A stretch of 64,000 nt of DNA. It comes from Isurus oxyrinchus (Eukaryota). The DNA is taken from contig JANJGN010000041.1 of the NCBI GenBank assembly GCA_026770705.1, positions 1,364,001 to 1,428,000 of the forward strand, given 5' to 3'. This document shows, in pieces, positions 4,926 to 6,983 of the stretch (positions are counted from its first letter, which is position 1; the number at the start of each line of letters is the position of its first letter). Under the pieces are notes generated by a model that was not told the origin of the DNA, searched no databases, and was given only the letters and a program-made list of their open reading frames with translations. The position numbers were made by a program, and so were the translations under genes.

Positions 4926-6158
4926 AAAATTTGTTGTTTGGATTGTGCGCTGCAGAAGAAGTGCTCACGGTTTTGGTTAGCAAATCGGATTTCATTTCTG
5001 CATGATGATCGACCTAAAGATCACCTCCTCATCAATTGGGACAGAAGGCAGTTTTGCAAATGTACATCATGAATAATGTTTCTGGAAAGATCCCCTGTGG
5101 GCAACGTCCCTTCAATTCATCATGCTGCCTGCTTCCACTTTGTAGACGTCGCAACGTTTACCCAAAATAACGCTTCCCATTGTTTATTCAGGGCAATTAT
5201 ATAAAAAAAAACATGCTTTAGAATCGACAAGTGCAAAAGTTACCCCACACTTTGCGGTAACCAATAAGGTCAACATAATTCACATCCCGACCACGATTGA
5301 ACATCCGGGGCTCACTGATGTCAATAGGTTCCAGGCAGGATCACAGCTCCACCTCGCCTGTACCCGAAGATGTGGGAGCCTTAAGTAAGATTAGGATGGC
5401 CAGAGTGCCACTGCAATGTACGCAATGTGTTTCAGTAAGCTCCAAACAGGCAAAATCACCAAAGAAAAACATTTGAATGCAAGGTAATTTTCATTTCGCA
5501 CTCCACCCTTCTTTCAATTCATTCCTAAATTGGTACATTACTTATGGCATGTGAACACTTCCTTGCAGCACTTAAAATTCGATTGGAAGGAAATAACAAC
5601 TTGTGTGCAGTCACCAGAAAAAGGCTAAGGTAATCACATGTATACACACAGTTTCTCCAAGAATCCCGTGATTCAGTCAGCATCGCATCAAGTCTTTGTC
5701 ACCTGGTAACTCGACTTCAACTAAAGTTCCGGCTGCCAAATGAGCCTGGATTTTGAAAGCCGCTCACTGAACTCTGCAGAACACGCTGTGTTTAAAGGTG
5801 AGATATGCTTTTTCAGCTTGGTATGCAGCCCGAGTTATGCTTCTTCGTCCTAACTAAGAGTTCCTGTCCCAGGTGTGACGTGCAAATGTCCAAAATGCTC
5901 ACTGGGCGAGAAAACCGTCAGTTTTCACAGAAACCCAAATTGTTGGAAAAACACAGCGGGCCTGAAAGCATCTGTCGAAAGAAAGACACGGTTTACTTCA
6001 GGAGTCCGTGTGGCACTTCTTAAAAACGGTAATTTGTCAACTGTGTTTGGACGTGTTTGCATGTGTTGCCATAGGAAAGCGATCCCAACTCATTTCTGCA
6101 CTGCTCCTTAAGCAGTTAACATTCAGTTTGAAATGAAAACAGCCGTGTGGATACCTAT

Positions 6159-6411
6159 ATATAAAAACAAAAATCTGCGGATGCTAGAAATACAAAACAA
6201 AAACAGAATTACCTGGTAAAACTCAGCAGGTCTGGCAACATCGGCGGAGAGGAAAAGAGTTGACGTTTCGAGACCTCATGACCCTTCGAAGGGTCATGAG
6301 GACTCGAAACGTCAACTCTTTTCTTCGGTCATGAGGACTCGAAACGTCAACTCTTTTCTTCTCCACCGATGCAGCCACACCTCCTGAGTTTTTCCAGGTA
6401 ACTCTGTTTTG
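6159..6411. mobile_element. Fold-back (palindromic) mini-element made of two inverted Penelope 3' tails, with 14-bp TSD
   Basis: Perfect palindrome ctcatgacccttc|gaagggtcatgag (6275-6300); arms extend to tacctggtaaaactcagcagg / cctcctgagtttttccaggta; flanks gtgtggatacctat (6145-6158) and gtgtcgataactat (6412-6425); absent from sister repeat units at ~8340 and ~10455. Confidence 0.9.
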
Positions 6412-6983
6412 GTGTCGATAACTATCCTGTTGTGTTGTAAGCAAATGAATTACAACACGCTCTCCGCATGTAGCCTCTGCTCCCTTGATGTTAATGCCCT
6501 CTGCTGGTCCTCACTTCTGCATCCACAGGTTTCCAAAAAATTAGGATTTTTAACCTTTCGATCTTCTGCCCTTTTTAATTTACTTGCTGAAAGCTGACCA
6601 TGAGATTTCAAGCTTTAAGTTATCCATTTGGCATGGCGCCACTTTTGTACATGGATGCTGGTGCTGCACTAATCCTTTATGTCTGAAGATGGAAAAAAAA
6701 GTACTGAAAACCCAGAGAGCCACAGGCAGTGTTTTGCACTGGTTGCTTCTGACAAGTTTGCTGAAGTTGCTGAGCGTAAATGAGAAAAGTAGTGTCTTCC
6801 TTTACCGGTTACATGTGATGTATTGTATCCGACACATTGGCAGAAAAAGAAGCTTCTTGTTTAAACGGATGAAAGGTAAATGTCTGCATTGTGCAGGCAA
6901 TCTGTGTAACTATTGCTTCAAAATGAAAAACCCAAGGCAAATTGCAATCTCACTGGCTCCCTTGGCCAGACGAGGCAGGCTTC

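Follow-up and report, generated by a model that had tools for sequence, protein, structure and literature searches.

A short palindromic Penelope insertion with its arms joined inside the hammerhead motif

The insert at 6159-6411 of the window, the 64,000-nucleotide stretch of DNA analysed here, is an ordinary, decayed insertion of a Penelope-like element (PLE), of a kind already described, at its smallest size, and it almost certainly belongs to the known inverted type. The joint at its centre, TTC|GAA, is a rare variant lying close to an end point that recurs, and not the signature of a family.

Structure of the palindromic insert

The locus comprises the following features.

6145..6158, plus strand: left copy of the target-site duplication (TSD), 14 bp, 12/14 alike with 6412-6425
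6159..6411: whole insert, 253 bp, inverted repeat without spacer
6159..6287, minus strand: left arm, pLTR plus tail, 129 nt, 5'-truncated inside the hammerhead core
6159..6198, minus strand: PLE tail, ~40 nt, matching 19608-19644 and the end at 13124, absent from the right arm
6286..6289: self-complementary TCGA common to both arms, hammerhead positions 6-9, spanning the symmetry centre
6288..6411, plus strand: right arm, tail-less pLTR, 89 nt net, with a further 35 nt of duplicate
6288..6317, plus strand: minimal type-I hammerhead remnant, recognised by visual comparison with PMC4209133 and with the intact copy 19703-19742
6292..6361, plus strand: perfect 35-nt tandem duplication in the right arm, copies 6292-6326 and 6327-6361
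6412..6425, plus strand: right TSD copy, paired with 6145-6158

Alignment of the arms and folding bear out the sequence-only reading of an inverted repeat centred on TTC|GAA at 6287/6288, with no spacer between the arms. Complementarity is 95% over the 39-nt inner arms and 89% over arms of 87 nt, 79 of 89 bases are alike when arm is aligned with arm (10 of 89 columns differ), and the folding z-score is -15.9, with none of 200 shuffles equally stable. This was the sole hairpin to pass a scan of the full 64-kb window (arm score of at least 18, loops of at most 40 nt), and no second copy of the TTC|GAA centre was found in the window. The 14-bp flanking duplication reported earlier is likewise present, although its copies agree at 12 of 14 positions only and the match is not exact; agreement at this level was equalled by 4 of 5000 random pairs of 24-nt stretches of the window.

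The two arms are unequal. The T-rich tail is carried by the left arm only, and the right arm stops at the tail boundary, so that the arm ends lie ~40 nt apart and the earlier description of two fused tails does not hold. The left arm is 91% identical to 19608-19733. At the centre, TCGA represents an exact overlap of 2+2 letters when compared with the intact copy at 19732-19735. Judged by the coding frames and hammerhead, which set the sense of the element, the arms point outward from the centre and their truncated 5' ends are joined. The insert is most likely a dead by-product; it has neither coding capacity nor an intact ribozyme.

The 35-nt duplication is absent from the earlier description of the locus. 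Perfect identity of its copies has a likelihood of 0.17 if the duplication is recent and of 0.03 if it is old, assuming ~5% decay per arm; the perfect match is thus about six times likelier under a recent origin, and the duplication is probably younger than the insertion. A direct repeat of CTTC at 6284-6287 and 6323-6326 could have guided the slippage that produced it.

Relationship to Penelope elements and the hammerhead

One further copy in the window served as a near-parental comparison.

19608..19764, minus strand: stump consisting of a single pLTR; hammerhead intact, with the TCGA variant; tail present

Both arms of the insert match the 3' ends of window copies at 1802-1868, 11151-11245, 13014-13124, and 19608-19735. 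The stump at 19608 ends 22 bases upstream of stem I, the letters upstream in it match the main class of loose ends in the reads, and no convincing TSD was found for it (best 8/10). Degraded frames upstream of three window copies contain ...LYIGET... and, beyond it, H and C residues at intervals; we take this stretch to be a GIY-YIG-like endonuclease motif. Pfam matched none of four and none of one of the degraded PLE endonuclease frames, and no intact reverse-transcriptase frame was identified in the window. The earlier proposal of a Penelope-derived, TSD-flanked integration product is supported.

The hammerhead remnant holds the GA, the extra base, stem II, GAAAC, GUC, and the 3' strand of stem I, while both arms lack the CUG box as well as the 5' strand of stem I, which leaves the core incomplete. 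Comparison by eye with the intact copy places the fusion inside the putative hammerhead core, with loss of the CUG box, in agreement with the sequence-only reading. By eye, the intact copy at 19703-19742 follows the minimal layout of PMC4209133, except for U at position 6. Free folding did not yield the hammerhead fold, and Rfam at its gathering threshold returned no match, hammerhead or other, across the whole window. An Rfam scan of 5900-6700 by E-value gave 11 sub-threshold matches, none of them to a hammerhead, the best of which were generic miRNA hairpins; a microRNA precursor was rejected, as the best hairpins score 35-41 bits against thresholds of 83-120. At the TCGA site, two of the other four window copies have TTGA and a third has a further variant.

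Several side observations concern these copies. An older minus-strand PLE fragment (1760-2990), 73-77% alike to the sister insertion described below, has a deletion that spans the 3' half of the hammerhead. Immediately upstream of the hammerhead, two subfamilies can be told apart (19743-19764 versus 11255-11280), and the 19608 stump belongs to the one that is commoner in the reads. A pyrimidine-rich, splice-acceptor-like run ending in AG stands at the start of stem I in three of the four intact copies (11253-11275, 12984-13006, and 19741-19765), and the fourth has a similarly placed AG; an RNA start or splice acceptor at this place would account for the common end point of the cDNAs. In a Drosophila element the end of an intron falls at the 5' end of helix I (PMC4209133).

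Host repeat, empty sites, and age of the insertion

The host sequence belongs to a set of four diverged ~2.1-kb units in tandem (4760-13784; 68-76% alike), and the empty sites claimed earlier for sister units are seen in two of them.

8337..8351, plus strand: empty site in host repeat unit 2, by alignment
10450..10464, plus strand: empty site in host repeat unit 3, by alignment

Both aligned sister host units (2/2) have a single copy of the target. Over the 89 aligned columns of the arms, four changes are private to the left arm, five are private to the right arm, one is tied, and none is a shared derived change. The absence of shared derived changes together with the 10/89 differences fits an old insertion whose arms have decayed independently without conversion, and the divergence argues against a read folded back on itself. 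It is silent on whether one RNA or two were copied.

Both PLE insertions of the window that are discussed here (6159-6411 and 11138-13145) sit within the tandem units at 4760-13784, and Pfam found nothing above cut-off in two long frames of these units. Elsewhere in the window, degenerate arrays with 55-56-nt periods occupy 14794-23608 and include a G30 run at 19801-19830, and two related arrays with ~51-nt periods (33741-34178 and 40899-41279) are 66-68% alike. The frames at 29738-30148 and 46888-47337 resemble remnants of a LINE reverse transcriptase and an LTR integrase; Pfam gave no match for either, nor anything above cut-off for seven long window frames other than the PLE frames.

A sister insertion of the same plan

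A second, longer insertion in the window shares the plan of the palindrome.

11138..13145: sister insertion with a 15-bp TSD, 13/15 alike, interrupting host unit 4
11149-11903, minus strand: tail-less arm, 755 nt
from at least 11964 to ~13130, plus strand: tailed arm, at least 1,160 nt, the longer of the two

Its arms are 82% identical to each other. Its junction lies in coding sequence, far from the hammerhead, and shows no inverted match longer than 6 nt and no self-complementary joint; homology within the window gave no assignment for the 60 junction positions 11904-11963. Since this junction involves neither the hammerhead nor TCGA, the inverted plan needs neither. In both window insertions (2/2) the tail is on the longer arm. 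TGGA occurs in the target at both tail-less ends (6412-6420 and 11149-11152) as well as at the tail boundary of the element, in register in the sister insertion and offset at 6412-6420, which hints weakly (n = 2) at primer pairing at the proximal start.

Joints in sequencing reads

Reads of two raw DNA runs from one sample (X18 and X19) were aligned at 80% likeness to the tail-less sister arm, 11090-11910, which served as reference in place of the locus at 6159-6411, and contig sets X1 (organism A) and X5 (organism B) were also used. Runs X5-X17 share a small part of the window's words and give no evidence for the locus. Depth per run was ~67,000 on the pLTR, ~21,000 on the endonuclease region, and 0.2-0.3 in one bin of host flank. 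All figures on joints refer to the best 15 of 379, a list that dispersed breakpoints would escape.

Ten of these 15 join opposite strands. In eight of the best 15 both ends fall within 11250-11255, at the 5' edge of stem I (first base 11254 on the reference), and these account for 732 reads (347 in X18 and 385 in X19); two further rows of the 15 join 11254 to a much shorter arm. The cluster lies 5-10 bases upstream of the TTC|GAA centre. Contigs support three of its eight rows, namely 11250/11252 (X1), 11252/11255 (X1 and X5), and 11254/11255 (X5), and the remaining rows may include library fold-back chimeras. The X1 contig at 11250/11252 has a depth of 273.6, compared with about 20-40 for the other contigs listed. 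The equivalent of TTC|GAA, 11245/11245, is not among the best 15 of 379 joints, of which the weakest has a combined support of 39; if joints are ranked by summed support, as they appear to be, the TTC|GAA joint would have at most ~39 reads, about one-nineteenth of the cluster's 732. If single-copy depth is taken as 0.25-0.45 per run, a value assumed from a guess at genome size and a single noisy bin, the stem-I-edge cluster corresponds roughly to 1,000-2,500 loci and TTC|GAA to no more than about a hundred, out of some 10^5 pLTR arms.

The pile-up at 11254 is partly an effect of the reference. The main subfamily departs from the reference upstream of this position, with about 20,100 loose ends per run, and centres up to 20 bases upstream therefore accumulate there. 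The largest row, 11254/11254, holds 287 of the 732 reads with a longest short side of 53-58 letters; it probably hides up to 40 letters and originates from this effect. Row 11253/11254 includes a read whose short side is 73 letters long, which leaves at most five hidden letters. Another TCGA stands 6-9 bases upstream of stem I (19748-19751). As the centre of the largest row it would predict 14 hidden letters and sides of up to ~68, in place of the 53-58 seen, and it is not supported.

At the other end of the arm, 24,661 and 24,433 reads cross 11149 from the tail-less reference into the tail. A class of about 13,100 reads per run, in which tail-less ends and tail variants are inseparable, ends at 11151/11152 in mixed loose letters (agreement 0.42-0.47). 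No joint at the predicted ribozyme cut, 11219/11220, appears among the best 15 of 379, and hammerhead cleavage as the source of the 5' ends is rejected for now.

Origin of the inverted arrangement

On balance we lean towards a single event, a staggered cut whose two nicks each primed inward reverse transcription. Extension from both 3' ends of such a cut accounts for the TSD, for two inward antisense cDNAs, and for their head-to-head joint, and use of the distal start on one side accounts for a tail on that side only. Both end types, with the tail and with mixed or absent tail, are abundant in the reads. The anole Poseidon protein cuts and extends both strands in vitro, its two reverse-transcription starts bracket the tail, and it is modelled as a dimer (PMC11167929). 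The sequence-only reading had both nicks priming from the same 3' end; the first part fits the anole PLE in vitro, whereas the second is not supported, since the arms end ~40 nt apart, in keeping with the two published starts.

In the sequence of steps that we infer, the GIY-YIG endonuclease would nick the two strands 14 nt apart, one 3' end would prime at the distal start and keep the tail, and the other would prime at the proximal start without it. Both cDNAs would have the 5' edge of stem I, or a point close to it, as their common end and would be joined through zero to a few matching bases. At TCGA, the arms of the locus at 6159-6411 would each have been shortened by a further seven bases, whether in the course of joining or through later deletion, and the 35-nt duplication would have arisen afterwards through slippage. 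Annealing through TCGA is possible at this one locus; a palindrome joined at the stem I edge would contain two copies of TCGA, and their later collapse into one by deletion would give the same TTC|GAA product.

The main competitor, which we consider less likely, is that cDNA from one nick folded back and copied itself, and that the endonuclease, resolving the hairpin, made the second nick and removed a tail. In a published variant the self-priming takes place on an antisense template; this is the preference of PMC3846280, where junction palindromes are taken as a sign of self-priming, and PMC8557442 ascribes the tail to endonuclease resolution of an intermediate. The strong hairpin at 6287/6288 is in keeping with folding back, and this account also predicts the position of the tail, which both window insertions carry on the longer arm. 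The two arm ends, however, match the two in vitro starts of a system in which both strands were extended (PMC11167929), the sister junction offers no inverted match above 6 nt, and direct joints at the recurrent centres would share 0-3 letters, a count that holds only on the reference. Dual priming, cDNA fold-back, and antisense self-priming cannot be separated by the locus at 6159-6411 alone.

The remaining explanations are much less probable. That annealing of TCGA in the ribozyme core is a recurrent route, with TTC|GAA a common integration product, appears improbable: the four-base overlap is exact against the parent's TCGA variant, and short fold-backs near the hammerhead do recur in reads, but 11245/11245 is missing from the best 15 of 379 joints (at most ~39 against 732 reads, if ranked by summed support), TTGA replaces TCGA in two of four other window copies with a further variant in a third, and the sister junction is not self-complementary, so that annealing does not stand as a recurrent rule. 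We likewise give little credence to a MITE-like hairpin family moving as a unit. The row with 287 of 732 reads and the X1 contig depth of 273.6 indicate that some centres are common to several loci, yet at least eight different centres occur among the best 15 of 379 joints, TTC|GAA not being one of them, and the window holds no second copy of that centre. Moreover, the ends of the insert are unequal PLE ends, one with 40 extra bases, instead of terminal inverted repeats, and its TSD is equal in length to that of the long sister insertion (14 versus 15 bp); the earlier suggestion of a single MITE-like family is not supported. An assembly artefact arising from a fold-back read is least credible of all. 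The read alignment covered the sister arm, runs X1-X4 contain only 0.60-0.65 of the words sampled from 5600-7000, and a local error of assembly could account for the perfect 35-nt duplication. A read fold-back, though, would yield identical arms and mirrored flanks, in contrast to the 10/89 arm differences, the one-sided tail, the decayed TSD, and a host sequence that resumes in register with two empty sites.

A bolder extension of dual priming, which we put forward tentatively and regard as doubtful, is that two PLE RNAs, held together by a hammerhead dimer and a protein dimer, may be copied from both nicks, their cDNAs converging at the 5' edge of the ribozyme.

Comparison with known systems

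In LINE-1 twin priming each nick primes a cDNA, short homology links the two cDNAs, and what the second primer copies is a different region of one RNA, farther upstream. The arms at 6159-6411 differ in copying the same 3' region, which calls for two templates or reuse of one.

The earlier idea of an undescribed mechanism is not supported in view of published PLE insertions, in which an inverted 5'-truncated copy, a tail of 30-40 nt at one end, a TSD, and junction palindromes are found together (PMC3846280, PMC8557442), head-to-head being the most frequent form (PMC3846280, PMC8557442, PMC8969392, PMC2377424). The plan of these EN+ PLE inverted-pLTR insertions (Arkhipova et al. 2013, PMC3846280; Craig et al. 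2021, PMC8557442; Schostak et al. 2008, PMC2377424) is shared by 6159-6411. The present insert differs in that both arms consist of pLTR alone, for a total of 253 bp, and in that its junction is fully symmetric, without spacer, and inside the hammerhead; its TSD is 14 bp, compared with 8-10 bp for the rotifer insertions cited.

Poseidon of Anolis (PAc; Frangieh et al. 2024, PMC11167929) shows two starts bracketing the tail and extension of both strands, like the arm ends at 6159-6411. Hammerhead cleavage is unnecessary for PAc, and here no joint at the cut site appears among the best 15 of 379. The PAc starts are not homologous to the target, whereas TGGA is present here at both tail-less junctions (2/2, a weak difference). 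The available text of PMC11167929 offers no model for inverted products, uses 'inverted' once, of a blocking group, and leaves later steps of PLE integration unvalidated. A literature search, with subscription papers and Repbase outside its scope, returned nothing on clustering of end points at stem I or on a dual-priming model for PLE inversions.

With the minimal metazoan PLE hammerheads (Cervera and de la Pena 2014, PMC4209133) the intact window copies, as read by eye, share the 4-bp stem I, the extra base before stem II, the G10.1-C11.1 pair, and the palindromic ACGU replacing stem III, but they have U and not A at position 6, and both arms of 6159-6411 have lost the CUG box and half of stem I. 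The same paper describes pairs of hammerhead motifs 100-700 bp apart on opposite strands. Non-LTR retrozymes (bioRxiv 10.64898/2026.07.22.740005) are also short non-coding derivatives of PLE pLTRs with a type-I hammerhead; these form head-to-tail arrays of complete ribozymes, whereas 6159-6411 is one inverted pair of broken ones. Assignment of the insert to the retrozymes was rejected, as its only repeat is the 35-nt duplication, which lacks a complete core.

Significance

The class to which this insert belongs is of some interest for the question of how PLEs make inverted pLTRs and one-sided tails. The reads suggest about a thousand short palindromes ending near the 5' edge of stem I. If the two-template reading were true, the hammerhead would act in reverse transcription as a device for pairing and for setting the end point and not as a cutter, and such loci would constitute a natural sequencing library of PLE second-strand synthesis.
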